Of a DNA stretch of 64,000 nucleotides, positions 1,646 to 12,397 are shown one piece after another. The stretch is from an uncultured Clostridia bacterium (GTDB lineage Bacteria; Bacillota; Clostridia; UMGS1883). The translations under genes were made by a program, and so were the position numbers. Position 1 is the stretch's first letter. Every line of letters begins with the position of its first letter. Under the pieces are notes generated by a model that did no database searches, had not been told where the DNA came from, and worked only from the letters and a program-made list of their open reading frames with translations. The stretch spans positions 109,502-173,501 of the forward strand of contig CAKSFM010000001.1 in the NCBI GenBank assembly GCA_934454525.1. The letters are read 5' to 3'.

Positions 1646-2737
1646 TTATTTAATAAAGCTTTCGGCAATGCTGTGCATTTCATCCAGCTTGGATTCCATG
1701 TCGGCAACAAGCTTGAGCTGCGTTCTCGCCCTGTCAAGATTGTGATTTTCTCTGTGAATCTTAAAATAGACATCGCCGTTGAGATAATCTGCAAGAAAGC
1801 GGATTCCACATTCATATGTCATTATAAGCACAGATTCCGGAAGAAGCTCGACTTCCCTTTTCGTAAGGCACTCGCCGACTTCACCAAGGAAGCCTTCCGC
1901 AAAGCTTTTGTACTTTTCAAGGTCGAAATAAATCTTTGACAAATCGGTTTCATCCTCAGCTCCGCTTGAAGCGCCGAACCGCAATGCGTCACCGAAATCG
2001 TACAAAACCGAGCCGGGCATAACCGTGTCAAGGTCAATAACGCAGATTCCCTTGAGCGTGTCCTTATCAAACAGAACATTGTTCAGCTTGGTGTCATTAT
2101 GAGTAACCCTTGACGGAACGCTGCCGTCCGCCATCGCGTCTGTAATAAGGGAAGCGTACTTCGAGTATTTTTTTGCTGCGGCAAGTTCTTCCGAAACGCG
2201 CGCGGTGCGGTTTTCGTAATTTTTTCTGATTGCAGCTTCAAGCTGTTCAATGCGCTTCGGCGTATTATGAAAATCCACAATCGTTTCATGCAGCAGGCTT
2301 GCGTCAAATCCGTCAAGCATACGCTGGAATTTTCCGAACGATTTTCCGGCTTCAAAAAGCAGCGCCGGGTCTTCGGCAGTATCAAATGATTTTGAGTTTG
2401 ATACGAATTTATACATTCTGAAATAATTGTTGCTGTCAGCCATGTAGCAGTTTTTCCCGAGTTTTGTCTTTATAACATTCATCGTTTCGCGCTCCGGATC
2501 TCCGCCGTTCTTCACAATTTCACTTCTGAGATACTCCGTCACATTTACAATGTTTTCCATGACGCTGTTCGGATCTTTGAACACATTCGTGTTAATTCTC
2601 TGCAAAATATATCCGGGATTTCCCTCGCGCAGATATGTATCATTGATATGACCGTTTCCGTAGGGAACTATCCCCGCCTTGACTGAAAAGTTTTCAACAA
2701 CCTTTTCAAGATTGACTGCCATACTATCTCTCTCCAC
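1646..2737 (-). CDS. Phosphotransferase-family kinase (APH / N-acetylhexosamine-kinase-like fold)
   Basis: 'GNGHINDTY' nucleotide-binding motif, catalytic 'HNDTKLNN' and 'VIDLDTV' (D-x-D) motifs. 363 aa. Confidence 0.7.
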   Translation of the reverse strand: MERDSMAVNLEKVVENFSVKAGIVPYGNGHINDTYLREGNPGYILQRINTNVFKDPNSVMENIVNVTEYLRSEIVKNGGDPERETMNVIKTKLGKNCYMADSNNYFRMYKFVSNSKSFDTAEDPALLFEAGKSFGKFQRMLDGFDASLLHETIVDFHNTPKRIEQLEAAIRKNYENRTARVSEELAAAKKYSKYASLITDAMADGSVPSRVTHNDTKLNNVLFDKDTLKGICVIDLDTVMPGSVLYDFGDALRFGASSGAEDETDLSKIYFDLEKYKSFAEGFLGEVGECLTKREVELLPESVLIMTYECGIRFLADYLNGDVYFKIHRENHNLDRARTQLKLVADMESKLDEMHSIAESFIK

Positions 2738-2880
2738 TCTTTTTATTTATTAATAATAGACCTGAATTCTTCATAGCTGTTCAGCATGCTTCTTAGTTTA
2801 GCATACTCAAAATGCAATTTATATACCAAAAAGGATATAAAATATTCGATTTTGGATAAAAAACATTTTATTTCCATAAC

Positions 2881-3105
2881 CTAAATATAAATTATAACAA
2901 AAATACTGCTGCCGGTCAATCGGCATAATTCACAAATAACAAAGGCAAAATTTGCTGCCATTGTCACCGCTCCCCTTGGGAATAGGGCACGATATATACC
3001 GGACATATCATAATTATGGCACAAAAGCGCATATGTCAGAGTAAAAAGGTGACTATATGCATTGCCTTTTGTATTTCCAAAATTCCCCGATTTTCCCGCA
3101 CCCAT
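2881..3105 (-). pseudogene. Remnant of a toxin-module start: the first 16 codons 'MGAGKSGNFGNTKGNA' are fused to non-coding sequence
   Basis: The N-terminal 16 aa and upstream 5' UTR hairpin are identical to the toxin genes at 4311 and 7244. Downstream of the junction at about 3057 the reading frame is the antisense of a spoIIID-upstream-like sequence. Confidence 0.7.
2976..3060. repeat. Diverged duplicate of the spoIIID upstream region/RBS (compare 7955-8053)
   Basis: 'ttgggaata...aaaagcgcatatgtYagagtRaaaagg...ctatatgc' is shared. The core 3023-3060 matches 8016-8053 at high identity. A microhomology junction 'atgc' is visible at 3057-3060. Confidence 0.7.
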
Positions 3106-3111
3106 TAAGCA

Positions 3112-3146
3112 GTCACCTGCTTCCCGGAATAAAGGAAGCAGGTGAT
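3112..3146 (-). promoter_or_regulatory. 5' UTR hairpin (13-bp perfect stem) whose 3' arm contains the SD-like AGGUGA, 7 nt before the toxin-module AUG (remnant copy)
   Basis: 'gtcacctgcttcc cggaataaa ggaagcaggtga'. The same stem sequence occurs at 4318-4352 with a different loop. Confidence 0.6.
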
Positions 3147-3151
3147 TTGTC

Positions 3152-3694
3152 CTATAATATTCTGCTTGTTCTAGTTACATTCACTTTGTTGGCACCATCG
3201 TCCGACCAGGAATCAACAACCTGTGATATAGGAAATATAGAATTGTAATTATCATGTTCAGATATAGTTATATCTTCGGAAAACCATATGTCTCTTGAAA
3301 ACATTATAATTTTAGTTTCCATCCTTATGATGATCGCCTGATCAAATGCAATTTCAAATTCACCATCATTTATACAAATTGCATCATTTATAATTTCTAC
3401 ATCGTTAATAGTTTCGCCTACATCAAATGTCTCAAATGGTTCTTCGCAATACGGCTTAAAAGTACTATTGCCATCTACCAGTTTACACTTAAAGCCAGCC
3501 ACCTCTTCTTCTGTATCAAAAAAAGGGGTTGTTCTTTGAAGATTGGTAATCTCTACTGATAATTTATCTGTATTGATTCTCAAGTTCCCATATACATTGC
3601 CGAAAATCTTTCCACACTCATATGAAATAAATTTAGATCCTTTTATGTTTTTTAGCATTTTTTCCATATTATTATTTAAAGTTACATATATCAT
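3152..3694 (-). CDS. Hypothetical acidic protein; putative immunity protein for the toxin at 3709-4311
   Basis: The start is 14 nt after the toxin stop, with RBS AAAGGAGTG. 180 aa, acidic, no recognised enzymatic motifs. Confidence 0.45.
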   Translation of the reverse strand: MIYVTLNNNMEKMLKNIKGSKFISYECGKIFGNVYGNLRINTDKLSVEITNLQRTTPFFDTEEEVAGFKCKLVDGNSTFKPYCEEPFETFDVGETINDVEIINDAICINDGEFEIAFDQAIIIRMETKIIMFSRDIWFSEDITISEHDNYNSIFPISQVVDSWSDDGANKVNVTRTSRIL

Positions 3695-3708
3695 TCAATC
3701 GCACTCCT

Positions 3709-4311
3709 TTATTTTATAAAATGGATTTTTTGCGGTTTAATTTTACCAGGTGTTTTAACAGTTATTTCTACCGCCGGACTATTTGGAGTCTTTGTGATTA
3801 CCCTATAAACAATATTCGATTCATCGGAAAATATTGTTTGCACTCCTTTGCCATTTGGTAAAATCCTTTCGATTCCACCTTTGCTGAGTTTTTTGTAAAA
3901 ATCGGCAGAAGATTTTATAGGGTCATTACTTTTAAATACTCTAGTATTTTTTCCCTTTGTTCCAAAATAACCATTTTCCCCAAGATTATATTTCTTAGCA
4001 ACACTTTTAGCATTATCCACCACACTTGAAATCTTTGAAGTTTTCTTAGTTGTCTTAGCGGCATCTACCGCTTTATCTGCCATTTTAGCAAGTTTTGCCG
4101 TGTCTGCAACTTCTCCGGCAAAGGGGATTATTCCCACAGCGTCAAGTCCTGCCGATAGCAAATCGCCCCGCAGCAAATCAACAGGTATTGACGCAAAATC
4201 AGTAAATGTGTCAAGTCCGGGAATTAGCGATGCCGCCGTTAAAAGGTTGCTTAATGCATCTAATGCATTGCCTTTTGTATTCCCAAAATTCCCCGATTTT
4301 CCCGCACCCAT
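3709..4311 (-). CDS. Polymorphic-toxin-like protein: shared N-terminal module (possible pre-toxin domain) plus a unique C-terminal domain of unknown function
   Basis: The N-terminal 85 aa 'MGAGKSGNFGNTKGNALDALSNLLTAASLIPGLDTFTDFASIPVDLLRGDLLSAGLDAVGIIPFAGEVADTAKLAKMADKA' are identical to the genes at 6669-7244 and 5119-5679. The C-terminus '...YRVITKTPNSPAVEITVKTPGKIKPQKIHFIK' is divergent. Confidence 0.6.
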   Translation of the reverse strand: MGAGKSGNFGNTKGNALDALSNLLTAASLIPGLDTFTDFASIPVDLLRGDLLSAGLDAVGIIPFAGEVADTAKLAKMADKAVDAAKTTKKTSKISSVVDNAKSVAKKYNLGENGYFGTKGKNTRVFKSNDPIKSSADFYKKLSKGGIERILPNGKGVQTIFSDESNIVYRVITKTPNSPAVEITVKTPGKIKPQKIHFIK

Positions 4312-4317
4312 TAAGCA

Positions 4318-4352
4318 GTCACCTGCTTCCTGAAATAGAGGAAGCAGGTGAC
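4318..4352 (-). promoter_or_regulatory. 5' UTR hairpin (13-bp perfect stem, 9-nt loop) sequestering the SD (AGGUGA) of the toxin gene at 4311
   Basis: The minus-strand mRNA reads 'GUCACCUGCUUCC-UCUAUUUCA-GGAAGCAGGUGAC-UGCUUA-AUG'. No U-tract follows, so this is not a terminator. Confidence 0.6.
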
Positions 4353-4424
4353 AAAAAATCAGCGCTTGTTATAATTATTCTAAAAATCAGCATAACACGA
4401 TTTAATATATAAAATATCTTCGTA

Positions 4425-5099
4425 TTAAATCCTAATAGTTTTATTAAACACTCCTTCAAATTTATCATCAAGCACAATATCTTTGTGGTAATGACCAAAA
4501 AACCATTTTTTAAAAATAAGTTTATTTTTTATACTCTCAAAAAAATCTGTCAGCTTGTTTTTTTCATATGTTGGAGCAATAGCATTTTGAACAGATGTCG
4601 GCGCACAATGGGTTATCACATAATCGACCTCAAAATTATTCTTTTTAAGGTTCTTTTCCGCATTACTATATTCTTGTTCATTTGGCATTTCAGCACACCA
4701 CCAGTTTTTCCTTTCTATTCTGTACTCTTTATCGTGGGAATCGGCTCCGCCAAAGACGAAGACTTTTTTCCCGTCAATCGTATATGTCTCTCCACGTATT
4801 AAATGGTAAATTCCATCATCAACTTTGTGTGCAGTTCCTCCGCAAAGTTCTACTATCGGAAGAGAATAAAGCATATCAAAATTTTCATGATTACCGTCAA
4901 TAAACAGTGTTGTAAAGTTTTTGTTTTTAAGCCACTTTATCCAATATTTTTCCTCATTGCTGCCGTCCCAAACACCACCAAAATCGCCGCATATAATCAC
5001 ATAATCATTTTTAGTCATTTCTTTTTGCTGCGGAAAATGCTTTGCAGAAAGTTTTTGAATATCAACCGGAATATGTGTATCACCTGTAATATATATCAT
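4425..5099 (-). CDS. Calcineurin-like metallophosphoesterase (MPP superfamily), sitting in the immunity-gene position after the ParB-like toxin module
   Basis: Motifs 'GDTHIP', 'ICGDFGG', 'DGNHEN', 'HCAP' and 'GHYH'. RBS AGGAAGGATGG. The start is 19 nt after the stop of 5119-5679. Confidence 0.7.
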   Translation of the reverse strand: MIYITGDTHIPVDIQKLSAKHFPQQKEMTKNDYVIICGDFGGVWDGSNEEKYWIKWLKNKNFTTLFIDGNHENFDMLYSLPIVELCGGTAHKVDDGIYHLIRGETYTIDGKKVFVFGGADSHDKEYRIERKNWWCAEMPNEQEYSNAEKNLKKNNFEVDYVITHCAPTSVQNAIAPTYEKNKLTDFFESIKNKLIFKKWFFGHYHKDIVLDDKFEGVFNKTIRI

Positions 5100-5118
5100 T
5101 GATAACCATCCTTCCTAT

Positions 5119-5679
5119 TTAATCAAACCAAAGCAAGTCATTAATTGTTTTATATCCTTTATAAGGTAACGAGACCCTTTGAGTTGGAATTTTATCCAAT
5201 CCAAGTTGTTTTGCTGCCCTCAATCTATGATGTCCGTCAACAACATACTTTGTACCTTTATACTCAACATACTTAATAGGTTCAATAATACCATTTTTTA
5301 TGCTTTCCACTAAATTTTTATATTGTTTTTTGCTCAATGTTAGCTTATGAGTTTGTGTTAACTTTGTCGGCGAAATTCTTTTTATACCTTTAGTAAAATC
5401 CGTAGCTTTGTCAGCAGCCTTAGCGGCATCTGCCGCTTTATCTGCCATTTTAGCAAGTTTTGCCGTGTCTGCAACTTCTCCGGCAAAGGGGATTATTCCC
5501 ACAGCGTCAAGTCCTGCCGATAGCAAATCGCCCCGCAGCAAATCAACAGGTATTGACGCAAAATCAGTAAATGTGTCAAGTCCGGGAATTAGCGATGCCG
5601 CCGTTAAAAGGTTGCTTAATGCATCTAATGCATTGCCTTTTGTATTCCCAATCTTGATGAATATTCTAATTGCTCGATT
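5119..5679 (-). CDS. Orphan polymorphic-toxin module lacking the first 15 codons; C-terminal ParB/Srx-like (DGHHR) nuclease-type domain
   Basis: The shared N-module runs from '...GNTKGNALDAL' onward. Nucleotide identity with the other copies ends at 5650. The C-terminus is 'IKYVEYKGTKYVVDGHHRLRAAKQLGLDKIPTQRV'. No ATG sits at the module start, so the true start is unclear (TTG or in-frame). Confidence 0.55.
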   Translation of the reverse strand, partial: NRAIRIFIKIGNTKGNALDALSNLLTAASLIPGLDTFTDFASIPVDLLRGDLLSAGLDAVGIIPFAGEVADTAKLAKMADKAADAAKAADKATDFTKGIKRISPTKLTQTHKLTLSKKQYKNLVESIKNGIIEPIKYVEYKGTKYVVDGHHRLRAAKQLGLDKIPTQRVSLPYKGYKTINDLLWFD

Positions 5680-5713
5680 CTAATTGACGGAATCGAGCAA
5701 TGCATTGTTAATA

Positions 5714-6028
5714 TTAACTTATTTGTATTTTTCCCGCAAATATTTCTTTAGGAAAGTTTAAGTAATTCACCATAAAATAATCATCTTCAGTTATACTTAT
5801 AGGCGGCTCACCAGATATGCTAATCCCCTTGAAAATAAAAGACCAAAACTCCTCATATCCTTCCTCGTCCATATCACAATCAGACTCATCCTCAATATAA
5901 GAATCAAATATTGCCCGAGCCTCGCTTCCATCTTCCCATTTTAATATTAGTTCTTGGTCTTCATAGTTATCAATGTTATTAATAAATGTTCCTATAATTT
6001 TTTCTTCCCTGTCATTCCAAAAATACAT
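5714..6028 (-). CDS. Small acidic protein, putative orphan immunity protein
   Basis: 'MYFWNDREEKIIGTF...DESDCDMDEEGYEEFWSF'. RBS GGAGGAAG. It immediately follows the stop of the toxin C-terminal fragment at 6031-6159. Confidence 0.45.
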   Translation of the reverse strand: MYFWNDREEKIIGTFINNIDNYEDQELILKWEDGSEARAIFDSYIEDESDCDMDEEGYEEFWSFIFKGISISGEPPISITEDDYFMVNYLNFPKEIFAGKIQIS

Positions 6029-6030
6029 TT

Positions 6031-6159
6031 TTACTTCCTCCAATTAATTGGTTTTTCTGGCACAAGATGTGTTCCAGATTTGGAATAATGTATTATCCCA
6101 ACCGTGGTATCATATGATTTTCCCGTCTTTGGGTCAACATATTTTCCTATTATTTTTTT
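6031..6159 (-). pseudogene. C-terminal fragment of a degraded toxin gene (no start codon). Its stop overlaps the RBS of the downstream acidic gene
   Basis: Open frame 'KKIIGKYVDPKTGKSYDTTVGIIHYSKSGTHLVPEKPINWRK*' with no ATG/GTG/TTG start. It is bounded upstream by TAA at 6160-6162. Confidence 0.4.
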
Positions 6160-6200
6160 TTAATTAACAGTTTCTCTGTTTGTGCCAATCTTTCGACCTT

Positions 6201-6267
6201 ATTGAAAATCAATCGATGGTGAAAGCCGCTGCAAAGAACTTTGCTCTTTCCAAATCGAGTGTACATA
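6201..6267 (+). repeat. 67-bp duplicate of an internal spoIIID segment (matches 8102-8168, codons 17-38), 2 mismatches
   Basis: 'attgaaaatcaatcgaYggtgaRagccgctgcaaagaactttgctctttccaaatcgagtgtacata' matches. Confidence 0.85.
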
Positions 6268-6310
6268 CAATTGTAACAAGACAGCAACCTTTTATATAGA
6301 AGTGGCTTCA

Positions 6311-6652
6311 CTAACAAGTTTGCACAGATACAGATGAAGCTTTAATTTCAATTTCAATATATTTCCCGGATAAATCATTAAACACCGTCAGTACTATCTC
6401 ATTTTCATTGTTTGATACCACTTTTGAAATTTCATCACTGTTTATCCGATATGTACTATAATGAAGATTCGTACATTCACTAAATTTTATAACTATATTA
6501 CCAGTTTCCGGCATTTCATCCGTATAACCATCTTGCTGCCAATAGCAAAAATCAACATATAACTTAACAGTTGCCGTTTTTTTATTATAATCAATTTCTT
6601 CCAAAAGACTATCATGCAAGTTGTAATTCTGAATAAATTCTTTTATTGTCAT
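6311..6652 (-). CDS. Hypothetical protein; putative immunity protein for the toxin at 6669-7244
   Basis: Starts 'MTIKEFIQNYNLHD...' at 6652 with RBS GGAGGG, 16 nt after the toxin stop. The ORF-track start at 6718 would overlap the toxin. Confidence 0.45.
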   Translation of the reverse strand: MTIKEFIQNYNLHDSLLEEIDYNKKTATVKLYVDFCYWQQDGYTDEMPETGNIVIKFSECTNLHYSTYRINSDEISKVVSNNENEIVLTVFNDLSGKYIEIEIKASSVSVQTC

Positions 6653-6668
6653 AAAATTATCCCTCCAA

Positions 6669-7244
6669 TTATGGTATGATATGTGACTTTTTAGAGTTTT
6701 TCGGCACTGGGTTTCCAAATTTATCTAAATAGTAATCATGTTTGCCTGTTGAGTTTGGATTTAAAATATGATAATGATCCTTTCCTCCATATCCTCCCAT
6801 GCTTCTTTTCCCTTTGTGAAACCTTATTGTATAACCGTTCTTTTTGAACATCCTTGATGTTGTATTCTTCTTCATTGCTGCCGGAGTTATTTCTTCCCAA
6901 CCGTTTTCCACTAGTTTCGATGGAGTTTTGTGTAATTTCAGTATTTTAACCCCCGATTTAGTAGCATCCGTAGCTTTGTCAGCAGCCTTAGCGGCATCTG
7001 CCGCTTTATCTGCCATTTTAGCAAGTTTTGCCGTGTCTGCAACTTCTCCGGCAAAGGGGATTATTCCCACAGCGTCAAGTCCTGCCGATAGCAAATCGCC
7101 CCGCAGCAAATCAACAGGTATTGACGCAAAATCAGTAAATGTGTCAAGTCCGGGAATTAGCGATGCCGCCGTTAAAAGGTTGCTTAATGCATCTAATGCA
7201 TTGCCTTTTGTATTCCCAAAATTCCCCGATTTTCCCGCACCCAT
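6669..7244 (-). CDS. Polymorphic-toxin-like protein: shared N-module plus a C-terminal HNH-like (H-Y-H...N...H) candidate nuclease domain
   Basis: The N-terminal 100 aa are identical to the other copies. The C-terminus is 'GGKDHYHILNPNSTGKHDYYLDKFGNPV'. The ATG overlaps the stop of the upstream ORF (TAATG), giving translational coupling. No UTR hairpin is present here. Confidence 0.55.
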   Translation of the reverse strand: MGAGKSGNFGNTKGNALDALSNLLTAASLIPGLDTFTDFASIPVDLLRGDLLSAGLDAVGIIPFAGEVADTAKLAKMADKAADAAKAADKATDATKSGVKILKLHKTPSKLVENGWEEITPAAMKKNTTSRMFKKNGYTIRFHKGKRSMGGYGGKDHYHILNPNSTGKHDYYLDKFGNPVPKNSKKSHIIP

Positions 7245-7807
7245 TAAGCAGTCACCTGCTTCCTGGACTTTGAAATTTCACTTTCAAAATGCACAATATT
7301 GATGCCCATATCCTTATATGGCTTAAAAATACTTTCCGGTGCACCGCCATAAACTACTATAGTTTCAGGCGATAGCCTTTGCACCATACGGGCGAGACCT
7401 ATTTCAAAAAAGATTTTATCCTCTTTGTGTTTAATACATCCGTGTGTCCCTACCGCGACAGTTTTATTTTCTTCTACCGCGTCAAAACAGAATGAGAACG
7501 TCCTCTCATCCCCAAATCTCACATTGGGGATAATTTCAACTCCGTTATTTTGAAGCCAGACCGATAAAGCTCTGCCTCTATATGTATTCCACATTTGCAT
7601 GCAAAGCGGCATATTGCGATACAGGCTGAAATCCGGCGAAATTATGCCCTTGAACTTTTTGAGTTTCGCAAGGTACTGTTTGGGATTATGCCATAGGCAT
7701 AACCTCATCTTTTTCAAACTGAAAAATATATGTAAACGTTGCATAGTTTTTTTCATTTCCCACATAAGTGTATAAATGTGGCAAAATATTGTCTTTTTCA
7801 GCGTCAA
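7244..7807 (-). CDS. Hypothetical protein translationally coupled to the first toxin gene; the true start is probably internal (about MPLCMQMW/MQMW)
   Basis: The C-terminal 110 aa 'NGVEIIPNVRFGDERTFSFCFDAVEENKTVAVGTHGC...IVVYGGAPESIFKPYKDMGINIVHFE' look protein-like. The N-terminal 70 aa look like a non-coding translation. Confidence 0.35.
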   Translation of the reverse strand: MTLKKTIFCHIYTLMWEMKKTMQRLHIFFSLKKMRLCLWHNPKQYLAKLKKFKGIISPDFSLYRNMPLCMQMWNTYRGRALSVWLQNNGVEIIPNVRFGDERTFSFCFDAVEENKTVAVGTHGCIKHKEDKIFFEIGLARMVQRLSPETIVVYGGAPESIFKPYKDMGINIVHFESEISKSRKQVTA

Positions 7808-8053
7808 GCAAGTGGGCCGTTATATCAACAACGGCAGTACACAGGCTTGATTTACCCGAGCCGTTTTTACCGATTTTGGAAATGAGTAATAAAACAAGGT
7901 TCTTTAAAGATTTTCAGGAATTTTACCTGTAAGGGTTTTAGCGCTTCGGCTGTTTTGGGAATAATAGCGCCCGATAACTTTTGCAATAATGCCGCCCTTT
8001 ATCATATTCGGGCATAAAAGCGCATATGTTAGAGTGAAAAGGGGGCTATATGC

Positions 8054-8323
8054 GTGAAAGACTATATCGAACAGCGCGCCTTAATGCTGGCAGATTACAT
8101 AATTGAAAATCAATCGACGGTGAGAGCCGCTGCAAAGAACTTTGCTCTTTCCAAATCGAGTGTACATAAAGATGTTACGGACAGACTGCTTAAAATTGAC
8201 CCGACACTTGCGCGAACCGTTAAAGCCGTGCTTGACAAAAACAAGGCGGAGCGGCACATCCGCGGCGGAATGGCAACAAAACGCAAGTACGAGGAAAAGA
8301 AGCGCCGATACGCTAATATCTGA
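8054..8323 (+). CDS. spoIIID: Stage III sporulation protein D (SpoIIID), mother-cell transcription factor
   Basis: '(M)KDYIEQRALMLADYIIENQSTVRAAAKNFALSKSSVHKDVTDRL...IRGGMATKRKYE' closely matches B. subtilis SpoIIID. GTG start with RBS AAAGGGGG. Confidence 0.9.
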   Translation: MKDYIEQRALMLADYIIENQSTVRAAAKNFALSKSSVHKDVTDRLLKIDPTLARTVKAVLDKNKAERHIRGGMATKRKYEEKKRRYANI

Positions 8324-9152: not shown

Positions 9153-10403
9153 TTACTGATTCTGTTTTTCATCCGCCTGAGCTGCGTCCTGCGCGGTATC
9201 CTGCGTTTGCTGCGCCGAATCCTCCGCAGGAGCTGTGCTCTGCTGTGCGTCTGCATTTTTCTGAGCCGCATCAGCTGCTTTCTTTCTTGCCTTGCTCCAC
9301 TCGTCAAGGTATTTATCAATCGTTTCGTTTTCAAACTTAACGGGTTTCATTTTCTTAAGCTTCTTATCGATAAGACCCATCACTTTTTCCTGAAGCTTTT
9401 GCTTTTTATAGTCCTTGAATTCATCAATTGAGTCATCAATAGCATATCTCTTAATGATGTGATAGCCGTAATCTGTTTTAACCGGTTCTTTAGTGTAGCT
9501 TCCGATTTCAAGATTTTTTGAAGCTTCCTCAAATTCGGGAACCATCTCGCCCGTTCCGAACACATAGAACTTACCCTTTGAGATTCCGGGGTCTTCGTTA
9601 TATTTTTCTATAAGGTCATCAAAGTCCGCGCCCTCGTCAAGCTTGGCAATAACTTTCTTGGCAATTTTCTTTGCTTCTTCATCGGTTTTGGCAGGCTTTG
9701 TTTCGTTTCCGCTGCTGTCTTTCTGCGCCTGTGTTCCGATAAGAATGTGCTGAACTCTCCACTTGTCGGCATAATCCTTAAGGAAATCCTTTTTAAGCTT
9801 GCTCTTGTCAATCGATGCCTTGCCGTCCGTTTTCGTAAGTTCCTTGTAAAGGCGGTCATAAATCTCGCAGATTACAAGATAACGGTCGAACGCCTTATCG
9901 GTTGTTCTCGCTTCCTCAAGATATGCCTTGTATCCGTCAGTTCCATTGTAATTCTGTTCAATAAGATTATTCTTGTTTTTCGTAACGGCATTCTCAACAG
10001 CCGTGGAATCCGCTTTTATTCCGTTATCCTCCGCAAGAGCAACAGCGGCAACCATCTGCTTTATCTGCGCTTCGGTGTTTTCTTTCATATAATCTCCCAT
10101 GGTCTTGCCGTCCTCAATCTCCATGGCTTCCCAGTCATCTCCGTAATACGAAGAGTACTGCGACATATTGTCATACACAAGCTTATATATAAAATTATAA
10201 TCTGCCTGTGTGATCTTGGTTTTGCCTATTGTGGCAACAACGCTGTTATTAAGCGTTTTATCCCCGTCCGTTGCAATAACCTTATCTTTAAACGATTTGC
10301 CCCCGCCCGTTCCGGCTGACATTTTATCTCCGCTGCCGCAGCCGCTGAGAAGCATAACAGCCGAAAGTGCGGATGCGCACAGAGCCGTAAATTTCTTACC
10401 CAT
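9153..10403 (-). CDS. prsA: Foldase lipoprotein PrsA (parvulin-type peptidyl-prolyl isomerase)
   Basis: Lipobox 'LLSGC', the PPIase core 'RVQHILIG...GYHIIKR', and a low-complexity acidic/Q-rich tail. Start ATG 10403 with RBS AGAAAGGA; the track start at 10433 is TTG. Confidence 0.8.
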   Translation of the reverse strand: MGKKFTALCASALSAVMLLSGCGSGDKMSAGTGGGKSFKDKVIATDGDKTLNNSVVATIGKTKITQADYNFIYKLVYDNMSQYSSYYGDDWEAMEIEDGKTMGDYMKENTEAQIKQMVAAVALAEDNGIKADSTAVENAVTKNKNNLIEQNYNGTDGYKAYLEEARTTDKAFDRYLVICEIYDRLYKELTKTDGKASIDKSKLKKDFLKDYADKWRVQHILIGTQAQKDSSGNETKPAKTDEEAKKIAKKVIAKLDEGADFDDLIEKYNEDPGISKGKFYVFGTGEMVPEFEEASKNLEIGSYTKEPVKTDYGYHIIKRYAIDDSIDEFKDYKKQKLQEKVMGLIDKKLKKMKPVKFENETIDKYLDEWSKARKKAADAAQKNADAQQSTAPAEDSAQQTQDTAQDAAQADEKQNQ

Positions 10404-10500
10404 TATTCCCAATCCTTTCTCATGTGATTTCAAAAATCTAATATATTATATAACATCGGATTCGGATTTGCAAGTACTTTACACTTTATTTACAATTTTT

Positions 10501-10926
10501 TTAACCGACATAATTATCGATAATTTTTCTTTCCTGCATATTGATTTTCAAACCCTCGCCCGTGGCAACCTCCCGAAACGCGGTTTTTACATCGGATGTG
10601 ATTTTATTGCTTTCATTAATCAGAAACCAAACGCTGCGCAATTCATTCCAGTACTTCGGGTGATTGATTACACCGTGTTTTTGTATATGGTTCATCAGCA
10701 GGATGACATTTCCGTCCGACATATCAGTTTTAACATTATTATAAAGCTCTGCCCTTTTTCTCAGGAAAAACAGGTAGATATATATAAGATAGGCAGCGAC
10801 CGCGCCGAAAACGCCTGTCGGCAAAGCAAGAACAACTGCCAGTATCGGAAGCTTGTCCACCTTGATTCTGCTGTAAACCGGAATCAGAACTATAATGGAA
10901 ATCGGGATAAGATAAGCATAGTTCAT
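10501..10926 (-). CDS. Hypothetical small membrane protein (2 TM)
   Basis: Start ATG 10926 with RBS AAAGGGG. It lies downstream of a consensus promoter at 10957-10986. Confidence 0.5.
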   Translation of the reverse strand: MNYAYLIPISIIVLIPVYSRIKVDKLPILAVVLALPTGVFGAVAAYLIYIYLFFLRKRAELYNNVKTDMSDGNVILLMNHIQKHGVINHPKYWNELRSVWFLINESNKITSDVKTAFREVATGEGLKINMQERKIIDNYVG

Positions 10927-10956
10927 ATTAAACGCCCCTTTAAAATATTCTGCATA

Positions 10957-10986
10957 ATTATACCATAAACAGGCACAATCAGTCAA
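10957..10986 (-). promoter_or_regulatory. Sigma-A promoter TTGACT-18-TATAAT (minus strand) inside a 39-bp repeat
   Basis: rc(10981-10986) is TTGACT and rc(10957-10962) is TATAAT. Confidence 0.55.
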
Positions 10987-11015
10987 TATATTTTACTGAG
11001 AAATTTTACATGCCG
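10977..11015. repeat. 39-bp direct repeat (copy 1 of 2; copy 2 at 12398-12436), 2 mismatches. It carries the -35 box of the minus-strand promoter
   Basis: Both copies read 'aatcagtcaatatattttRctgWgaaattttacatgccg'. Confidence 0.8.
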
Positions 11016-11094
11016 TGCAGGTTTACACTTCCAAAGACGAATATGCTGACGCTAAACCGCGGCAGAATGCCGAGCGGAGCTGCCCCACGTATCA

Positions 11095-12120
11095 CTAAAT
11101 AATCAAACAATCTTCAATCATTACATTTTCACCGTCAAATATTAAAAGCTGCTTGCCGCTTTTGCCTGAGCACTTTCCTATAACTTTAATACTCGCGCCC
11201 TCCTTTAGCGCGGCAACGGCATCAGTTTGCGAAGTGTTAAAATTCAGCTGCACGGATTTAAAATATTCGCCGCTTTTTAAAAGTACACATAGGTTACTGT
11301 CGTGATTTGTTTTACCGAAACTGTTTATAATTCCTGAAACAATTACGGTCTTGCCGGTGTAATTCTTATCCGCATTTACGATATTTGATTCATATTCTGC
11401 CATAAGCTGATTCGCATTAAAAGAAGGATATTGTTTATATTGCTCGCTTATGTAATTATCCATATTGCGCGCCGCCGCAGTATCAGGATACTGTGTTTTA
11501 ATACTGTTGCATATATCAAGCGCGTTTCTGTAATCACCGTCTGAAAACTTTTTCGCAGCCTTTTCTAACTCTTGCTGCGACTTTTCTTCATCGGTCATTT
11601 CAGTATTTTGAGCATTTTTCACCGAGGTGGTTTTGCTGTCCGAGAATTCAACCAAATTATTCAAAAGAAAACCGAAAAGAATAACAACGGCACAGACACA
11701 ATAACCGATAATGCGCATGTTACTCTTTCTTTGTTTTTGTACCCCGAAAGGTATTTTATTCGTGCTGCCTATTGCTTTTATATCTGCTGTATAAGCATTA
11801 TTTGCGGCAAAGCTGCCATATGTCGGAATATGCGGCGCATTATCAGCATAGTCAACCGCAAAATTACCGTTCAAAACAAACCTTGTTTTCAATTTCACGA
11901 TTTCCGCATCGTCATTGACCACTGCCACAAAAGAAACATTCATTTTTTTACCGAACATACTTTTTTGTTTAAAAGACAGCATATGGCTTCCTGTTCCGAC
12001 CGCAGCTTCCACGGTTCCGCCGCAGCTTAATGTTCCGATGTATGTATTCATTATATAGACATCGAATTTACATGCACATCCGCAAATCTGCGGTTTCCAC
12101 TTAATAATAATTTTTGCCAT
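11095..12120 (-). CDS. Hypothetical protein with one central TM helix (341 aa)
   Basis: Long ORF with RBS GGGGTGA. A terminator-like hairpin lies in its leader at 12141-12173. No recognised motifs. Confidence 0.5.
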   Translation of the reverse strand: MAKIIIKWKPQICGCACKFDVYIMNTYIGTLSCGGTVEAAVGTGSHMLSFKQKSMFGKKMNVSFVAVVNDDAEIVKLKTRFVLNGNFAVDYADNAPHIPTYGSFAANNAYTADIKAIGSTNKIPFGVQKQRKSNMRIIGYCVCAVVILFGFLLNNLVEFSDSKTTSVKNAQNTEMTDEEKSQQELEKAAKKFSDGDYRNALDICNSIKTQYPDTAAARNMDNYISEQYKQYPSFNANQLMAEYESNIVNADKNYTGKTVIVSGIINSFGKTNHDSNLCVLLKSGEYFKSVQLNFNTSQTDAVAALKEGASIKVIGKCSGKSGKQLLIFDGENVMIEDCLII

Positions 12121-12397
12121 AGTATTTTCACCCCATCATAAAATAAAAAATGCGCCTACCGAAGCAGACGCATAAAAAACGCAAACTCCGATAGTCGCCA
12201 AACTAATTGATTATGACAAGAACGAATCCGTATCACTCAAATTGAAATCTGCGTTTTTTGCATAATTCATGACAGAGTGACACAAAAACTAAACTTATCC
12301 TTTATATCAAAAGAAAAGTTCCCGTCAAAATATTCAATTAGTTTGGCACAATTATGATACCATATTCTTCTGCAATTTGCAACACATTTTTATAGGC

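Follow-up and report, generated by a model that had tools for sequence, protein, structure and literature searches.

How do pieces of a sporulation regulator gene come to lie in an array of toxin genes, and does their presence tie the toxins to sporulation? The question is raised by a 64,000-nucleotide stretch of DNA from an uncultured Clostridia bacterium of the UMGS1883 lineage (GenBank assembly GCA_934454525.1, contig CAKSFM010000001.1, positions 109,502 to 173,501; the whole stretch is called the window here). The window contains an intact spoIIID gene and, on the opposite strand and divergent from it, an array of small toxin genes with putative immunity genes. Two partial copies of spoIIID accompany the array: copy A, which corresponds to the promoter and leader of the gene, and copy B, which corresponds to part of its coding region (Table 1). 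These fragments are probably scars of homologous and illegitimate (microhomology) recombination, left behind as islands were swapped beside spoIIID by homology-facilitated illegitimate recombination (HFIR). An initial annotation, made from the letters of the window alone, had proposed a scar history of repeated toxin-cassette recombination at spoIIID, and this proposal is supported by the strain-variable site described below, the edges of its islands, the pre-event state found in the sibling strain L107, and the joints themselves.

spoIIID is intact, as had been annotated: its product matches the SpoIIID family over the full length (PF12116; residues 2-82 to model positions 1-81 of 82, E = 1.2e-38), and the identical protein is listed in 191 blocks of the collection. 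The annotated repeat of codons 17 to 38 was recovered by BLAST, copy B being identical to spoIIID (8102-8168) at 65 of 67 nucleotides (97%; E = 3e-26 against the 64-kb window) and differing only at 6217 (T instead of C) and 6223 (A instead of G). The similarity of its neighbouring sequences to spoIIID is at the level of chance, since 43% and 95% of shuffles reach the observed scores, and both edges of copy B are therefore sharp. The second, more diverged duplicate, of the region upstream of spoIIID including the ribosome-binding site (RBS), has the extent that had been claimed: BLAST finds the core of copy A (3006-3060 versus 8000-8053; 55 nt, 85% identity, E = 2e-10 against the window), and a gapped similarity that is attained by 29 of 5000 shuffles reaches back to 2976, the equivalent of 7954 (TTGGG..AATAG.GC.CGATA). 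Beyond copies A and B, no further spoIIID copies were found in the window.

The neighbourhood of spoIIID was aligned across about 60 related metagenome contigs; the close relatives all come from gut metagenome assemblies, Hadza samples among them. Contigs encoding the identical SpoIIID protein form two groups, the window lineage (99.9% identical) and a sister clade (about 88% identical). Synteny of the window with the sister clade stops at 2958-2974, to the right of an APH-family gene, and restarts at 7975-7977 in the upstream region of spoIIID, which is the right island edge. Between APH on the left and spoIIID with an ECF (extracytoplasmic function) gene on the right, strains hold the toxin array, an MGMT-Fic-ArsC island, a type I restriction-modification (R-M) system, or almost nothing. 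The contents of this chromosomal slot across strains comprise R-M, Fic, HipA, ParE, CBASS (cyclic oligonucleotide-based antiphage signalling system), OLD/Gabija-like, PDC-M12A and toxin modules. As judged from sequence, the APH-spoIIID interval is a strain-variable island hotspot. The alignment of relatives suggested in the initial annotation revealed both the hotspot and the distribution of the fragments. Copy A is confined to contigs of the window lineage, of which all strains seen have it, even L105 with its single cassette; it lies exactly at the left island edge. Copy B is likewise confined to window-lineage contigs. At islands of the MGMT/Fic type, the R-M type and the near-empty type, no flanking repeats above chance were found. 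In species-representative genomes, a degenerate spoIIID-leader pattern had no match and a search with the APH protein gave a best match of 67% amino acid identity (uncultured Ruminococcus/Oscillospiraceae metagenome-assembled genomes) that was not syntenic with spoIIID; the species is absent from that collection.

The initial annotation had placed copy B between the first toxin-immunity pair and a degraded cassette. The duplicate stands, but two features had been missed: copy B is followed without a break by a conserved 39-nt flank, and the stretch ending at 6200 is part of a degraded Ntox50 toxin gene. The flank recurs in the sister clade, where the spoIIID promoter and codons 1-38 are followed by a sequence about 90% identical to 6268-6306, which together form a truncated SpoIIID open reading frame (ORF) of 48 codons. 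This ORF is present on at least 34 contigs, found first on the Joint Genome Institute (JGI) contig L123 and then by way of the 48-residue protein (P0121, P0123, P0124). In L125-L137, for example at 3385-3531 of L131, it consists of promoter, RBS, codons 1-38 and a 10-codon tail, TVV[T/I]RQKLFI. The truncated copy invariably sits at the distal border of a second large island, the proximal border of which is formed by intact spoIIID. The truncated copy is in many strains directly adjoined by the 3' end of an array of toxin genes orthologous to that of the window, and the second island beyond it continues with Fic, an SLFN-like helicase, R-M, CBASS and other genes. In L131 a single contig carries the truncated copy and, 6.6 kb further, intact spoIIID, the two forming a 208-nt direct repeat of 97% identity. 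Truncated and intact copies have strain-specific alleles in common, and copy B carries all four synonymous alleles that separate the window lineage from the sister clade, in addition to two private non-synonymous changes. The spoIIID part of the repeat has therefore been homogenised with the resident gene by recombination. The flank, 90% identical between the clades, diverges in a manner typical of core DNA, and its pattern had no match in viral contigs. Copy B and the flank (6201-6306) are apparently a relic of this conserved truncated-spoIIID structure.

The state that preceded the arrival of copy B is seen in L107, a sibling strain 99.5% identical around spoIIID, in which an intact 205-residue Ntox50 toxin gene directly follows DUF4417 in slot 1, the first cassette position of the array. 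Homology of L107 to the window extends from imm104 up to 6200 and ends exactly where copy B begins. Relative to L107, the middle of the Ntox50 gene is replaced in the window by copy B, the flank, imm113 and the C-terminal part of tox191. The left joint (6200|6201) is blunt, with 0 nt of microhomology, and the right-hand crossover falls in the shared toxin 5' repeat. Within the inserted segment, the right end of the flank meets the 3' flank of imm113 at AAGTGGC (6300-6306), with up to 7 nt of microhomology; the heptamer is matched at six or seven of its seven positions in both parental sequence types. In the simplest reading, copy B arrived in one homology-anchored insertion from a donor that had tox191-imm113 beside a truncated spoIIID copy. 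The Ntox50 remnant has also acquired a nonsense change, TT at 6160-6161 (AA in L107) turning a Phe codon into a stop, which fits decay after truncation.

At copy A, the last base of the spoIIID repeat is 3060 and the first of the cassette-leader repeat is 3057, which gives an overlap of four nucleotides, ATGC; the microhomology noticed in the initial annotation is a genuine joint. Copy A is best read as the recipient's own promoter and leader, presumably stranded by an older event of the same kind as that which involved copy B. A copy-A-specific pattern had no match in the JGI metagenomes. Copies A and B are not favoured as two halves of one split copy: the former has diverged by about 15-25% and the latter by 3%, and L105 has copy A without copy B. 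Similarities of 7874-7953 to the left core, and of the sister-clade continuation of the left core to the spoIIID leader, were not significant and were dropped.

Other strains carry variants of the array. L105, a distinct strain (98.9% identity), has the layout DUF4417-tox200-imm180-stub-copy A; in L016 and L108 an intact ParB toxin occupies slot 1, and L136 displays the same kind of switch in the sister clade. All of these changes, those of L105 and L016/L108 relative to the window and that of L136 within the sister clade, came about by recombination between 99%-identical toxin repeats. The 5' repeats of the toxin genes are the substrate for cassette switching and deletion.

From the structures, the junctions, their distribution among strains and the absence of recombinases (see below) we infer an order of events, a donor state and a mechanism. 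Accessory islands would be exchanged between strains, anchored by homology on the conserved spoIIID side. At its far end, the arriving DNA would recombine by homology with an older partial copy of spoIIID or else be attached illegitimately, through a blunt or microhomology joint. An illegitimate joint inside the spoIIID 5' region of the recipient would strand a partial copy at the island's distal end, and the intact gene would come from the incoming DNA. In the case of copy A, position -1 of the stranded promoter and leader would have been joined through ATGC to codon 16 of a cassette leader, and the copy, being old, would since have been decaying. Copy B with its 39-nt flank would be the remnant of a second stranded copy, one widespread in the species group, that was carried distal to the tox191-imm113 cassette. 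This unit would have been joined bluntly to the middle of the resident Ntox50 gene, the other crossover lying in the toxin 5' repeat or DUF4417. The stranded 5' pieces of spoIIID may afterwards act as a second homology arm for island exchange. The junctions have the hallmark of HFIR: the proximal sides lie in spoIIID and the right core or in the toxin 5' repeat and DUF4417, and the distal joints share 4 nt (ATGC), up to 7 nt, or nothing.

Several observations weigh against this reconstruction. All contigs compared are short-read metagenome contigs; that of L107 is 2.5 kb long with about 5x coverage, and the shorter arrays of L016 and L105 could be collapsed assemblies. A truly empty site was not found among the contigs compared. 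Neither was the postulated donor, a full truncated copy whose flank adjoins imm113, every imm113 context found being that of the window itself. Copy A is about 75-85% identical to its source and copy B 97%, which requires either different ages or different degrees of homogenisation. Finally, the codon-38 junction, present with clade-specific alleles in two clades, could also result from a site-specific process.

That last possibility had been raised in the initial annotation, which offered attachment (att)-like sites of an element targeting spoIIID as an alternative. According to this scenario, the spoIIID fragments are attL- and attR-type sites, and a mobile element inserts site-specifically into the 5' part of the gene, bringing a replacement gene end. 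Part of the idea holds: direct repeats of the spoIIID 5' region bracket the second island in many strains, and the junction after codon 38 recurs with the same flank in two clades, each with its own spoIIID alleles. Moreover, intervening elements such as skin, SPbeta and gin are known to target sporulation genes (PMC5595907, PMC4191935). Arguing against site-specific integration is the lack of an enzyme, as no integrase, serine recombinase or other recombinase was detected in the window island, in that of L131 (complete at 6.6 kb) or in eight further islands, of which the first 10 kb were covered. The sole tyrosine recombinase nearby is a core XerD-like gene beside spoIIM, which is found in every strain. 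In addition, the repeat is about 208 nt of ordinary homology that includes the promoter, with no short core; the content of the islands is highly mosaic; copy A is joined at a different position; other island types occupy the site without flanking repeats; and spoIIID is uninterrupted. Homology arms fit these data better than site-specific att sites, and we regard the latter as unlikely.

A second scenario is that the copies have been kept for their function, either because sigma-E-type promoters drive mother-cell transcription antisense to the array or because a truncated SpoIIID peptide is made, with the effect of linking toxin or defence genes to sporulation in their expression. The leader of intact spoIIID contains TCATATT-N14-CATATGTT (8002-8030), which resembles the sigma-E consensus of Bacillus subtilis, kmATATT / CATACAmT. 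On at least 34 contigs, the promoter of the truncated copy in the sister strains is unaltered, its RBS is kept and its 48-codon frame is open, but homogenisation with the intact gene accounts for this conservation. Copy A keeps a recognisable pair of -35- and -10-like elements that points into the array, TCATAATT at 3008-3015 and CATATGTC at 3030-3037. However, the motif in 2976-3060, where the initial annotation had suggested looking for a sigma-E-type promoter, is degraded: an extra base is inserted in the -35 element, the last position of the -10 element has changed from T to C, 13 nt are deleted, and further differences accumulate distally. Copy B has no promoter and contains two non-synonymous changes. 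Retention for function is accordingly a poor prospect, less probable than the att scenario.

The initial annotation had gone further and suggested that the link of the array to a mother-cell regulator might bring toxin expression under sporulation control; an intrinsic tie of this kind is not supported. The array is divergent from spoIIID, and the same hotspot contains R-M, Fic or CBASS genes in sibling strains. In other taxa, the module of DUF4417, toxin and immunity genes adjoins gyrA/parB, spoIIP, an HprK-like gene or phage-like genes, and spoIIID fragments were absent from those loci. Nothing in the sequence indicates that the toxins are under sporulation control. There is a slim chance that the truncated copy, which has an intact sigma-E-type promoter and a 48-residue frame with most of the helix-turn-helix, and to a lesser extent copy A, could fire in the mother cell, which would give rise either to a shortened SpoIIID with a modulating effect on the regulator or to transcripts that enter the toxin array at its 3' end in antisense orientation. 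If so, the expression of toxin and defence genes, or recombination between the repeats, would become sporulation-dependent.

No more probable is an origin without horizontal transfer, in which copy B, and perhaps copy A, are filler patches templated by the nearby spoIIID gene through template switching during the repair of local deletions. Copy B is nearly identical to the resident allele only 1.9 kb away, and its edges are sharp at the deletion that removed the Ntox50 N-terminus. However, copy B is contiguous with the 39-nt flank that follows codon 38 in the truncated copy of the sister clade; the unit of codons up to 38 plus flank was therefore already in existence beforehand and did not have the intact gene as its template. 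The divergence of copy A is too great for a recent templated copy. That the duplicated segments are artefacts of assembling a repeat-rich region, in which contigs often break at the 280-nt toxin repeats, can be practically dismissed: identical junctions of copies A and B occur in independent assemblies of 10 samples made with several assemblers, the junctions are unique sequence rather than repeats, and the sequence of copy B and its flank appears in contigs from 10 different samples, so that these junctions are not artefacts.

Recombination anchored by homology, the explanation favoured here, places the locus beside the orphan toxin-immunity arrays of Rhs, contact-dependent inhibition (CDI) and type VI secretion system (T6SS) effector-immunity loci, for which displacement through HFIR has been proposed (Kirchberger et al. 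2017, PMC5361080). Those arrays and that of the window have in common a conserved 5' toxin segment with variable 3' domains, downstream immunity genes (putative here), displaced 5'-truncated orphans that pile up distally, and an expressed-slot toxin that varies by strain, along with a homologous anchor and an illegitimate distal joint as the proposed mechanism. They differ in that the window toxins are small (about 190 residues) and stand alone after DUF4417, no secretion system has been identified, and the anchor extends into the core gene spoIIID, so that pieces of spoIIID are left as scars too. Islands that integrate into tRNA or tmRNA genes, and prophages that replace gene ends, resemble the locus in that direct repeats derived from part of the adjacent gene bracket the island and the gene remains intact. 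Here, however, there is no integrase, the homology covers about 200 nt at the 5' end (promoter and 38 codons) instead of a short 3' att core, and the island contents are a mosaic of defence and toxin genes. In the intervening elements of sporulation genes, skin in sigK, SPbeta in spsM and gin in gerE, the split gene is rebuilt by a developmentally regulated recombinase (PMC4191935, PMC5595907). The locus shares with them foreign DNA at a mother-cell sporulation gene and gene fragments at the element borders. Unlike in those cases, spoIIID is unbroken and needs no rearrangement, and there is no recombinase; in L131 the intact copy lies downstream of the truncated one. As in defence-island hotspots between core genes, one chromosomal slot receives varied defence and toxin modules according to the strain, whereas the APH-spoIIID hotspot is subdivided by a stranded partial copy of a flanking gene that provides a second homology arm.

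The features of the locus are compiled in Table 1. Read leftwards from spoIIID on the minus strand, the array consists of an AAA_21 fragment and DUF4417, tox191-imm113, copy B and flank, the Ntox50 remnant and imm104, the ParB_N toxin and its Metallophos partner, tox200-imm180, and a cassette stub that ends at copy A.

Table 1. Features of the APH-spoIIID interval (window coordinates)
Feature	Position	Strand	Description
Left conserved core	1646-2974	-	APH-family phosphotransferase gene 1646-2722/2737; promoter-like site 2891-2919; palindrome/terminator-like site 2944-2959
Copy A	2976-3060	+	Diverged spoIIID promoter, 5' leader and RBS (= 7954-8053); last base directly precedes the start codon
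ATGC microhomology	3057-3060		End of copy A = codons 15-16 of toxin leader (antisense)
Cassette stub	3057-3145	-	Hairpin 3112-3145, RBS, ATG 3103-3105, first 16 leader codons (MGAGKSGNFGNTKGNA); cut off at copy A joint
tox200 cassette	3152-4311	-	tox200 (3709-4311); putative immunity gene imm180 (3152-3694)
Conserved 5' toxin repeat, 3 copies	4039-4332, 5404-5651, 6972-7265	-	About 280 nt, 99% identical
14-bp-stem hairpin	4318-4352	-	Pairs with tox200 cassette RBS, -36 kcal/mol
Orphan cassette	4425-5651	-	ParB_N-type toxin without start and first leader codons (5119-5651); Metallophos-family partner (4425-5099)
Degraded cassette	5714-6200	-	Putative immunity gene imm104 (5714-6028); last ~56 codons of Ntox50 toxin (6031-6200), nonsense change 6160-6161
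Copy B	6201-6267	+	spoIIID codons 17-38, by sequence comparison
Conserved 39-nt flank	6268-6306	+	Follows spoIIID codon 38 in sister-clade truncated 48-residue SpoIIID ORF; ~90% identical
Slot-1 cassette	6311-7244	-	tox191 (6669-7244); putative immunity gene imm113 (6311-6652)
Degenerate module head	7244-7873	-	3' two-thirds of DUF4417 (7244-7698) fused to internal AAA_21 ATPase fragment (7699-7873; PADLOC PDC-M12A type)
spoIIID upstream region	7954-8053	+	Sigma-E-like TCATATT 8002-8008, 14-nt spacer, CATATGTT 8023-8030, RBS 8037-8045
Intact spoIIID	8054-8323	+	89 residues

Of the C-terminal toxin domains, one is Ntox50, one is ParB_N-like, and the other two had no Pfam match. The shared N-terminal domain had no Pfam match even at E<=10, and its assignment as a PT-TG domain was rejected for want of Pfam support. 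The 120 toxin homologues listed are all short (about 180-220 residues) and have a common N-terminus; there is therefore no large parent toxin. The locus contains no secretion-system genes. Toxins and partners (putative immunity proteins) recur as pairs across loci, ParB-Metallophos in L106 and L125, tox191-imm113 in L121, and Ntox50-imm104 in L125, and the ParB_N-Metallophos block is 91.5% identical to that of the sister-clade array. The 5'-truncated orphans are intact elsewhere: the ParB orphan is a 185-codon gene after DUF4417 in L108 and L016, and tox200 occupies slot 1 in L105. DUF4417 and AAA_21 genes are both full-length in the sister-clade and more distant arrays of L006 (1707-3725), L121 (1007-2992) and L125; in the window lineage a deletion has left an internal piece of AAA_21 joined to a DUF4417 gene that lacks its 5' part. 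PADLOC gave no matches for DUF4417 or the toxins, and only the full-length relative of the AAA fragment matches PDC-M12A.

Very stable hairpins precede the internal cassettes (4296-4365 and 3090-3158, minus strand; -36 and -27 kcal/mol, z = -6.7 and -5.0), and their 3' arm is the RBS of the cassette itself (GGAAGCAGGTGA). In the first cassette after DUF4417 (7229-7298) the 5' arm of the hairpin is missing. This distribution suggests that only the slot-1 toxin may be translated. A recurrent uncharacterised module of uncultured Clostridia (L101, L106, L121, L122, window 3709-7244) consists of DUF4417, a small toxin of about 190 residues with an overlapping start, and a partner gene. Its toxins combine a conserved 95-residue N-terminus that has no Pfam match with Ntox50, ParB_N, Ntox37 or unknown C-termini, and the ParB type is consistently paired with a Metallophos-family protein.

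Outside the array, an element of about 250 bp with an internal inverted repeat (541-649) occurs at 447-700 (also at 287-352), in the gap that separates the XerD-like gene from the following ORF. In the sister strain L008, a copy of 95% identity lies between APH and spoIIID (9654-9910). The element looks like a miniature inverted-repeat transposable element and is missing from L105 and L018. A second variable spot is located at about 10500-12200, right of a peptidyl-prolyl isomerase gene; its genes for proteins of 141 and 341 residues (the latter tRNA_anti-like) are missing or replaced in the sister strains L002, L003, L005 and L008.

The locus is a new, well-documented example of known genome dynamics and reveals no new mechanism; it does not change what is known of sporulation or toxin regulation. 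Annotators should expect a 48-residue "SpoIIID" pseudo-ORF, which automatic annotation will call SpoIIID (PF12116). The growth of toxin-immunity arrays and defence islands can be read here with unusual clarity: L107 represents the state before the event and the window the state after it, L105 and L016/L108 are deletion derivatives, and L125 and L131 display the architecture of the sister clade. Since all of these have been sequenced, particular joints can be traced to particular events. The locus also shows that a core developmental gene can serve as a homology arm for the exchange of islands and be partly duplicated thereby.

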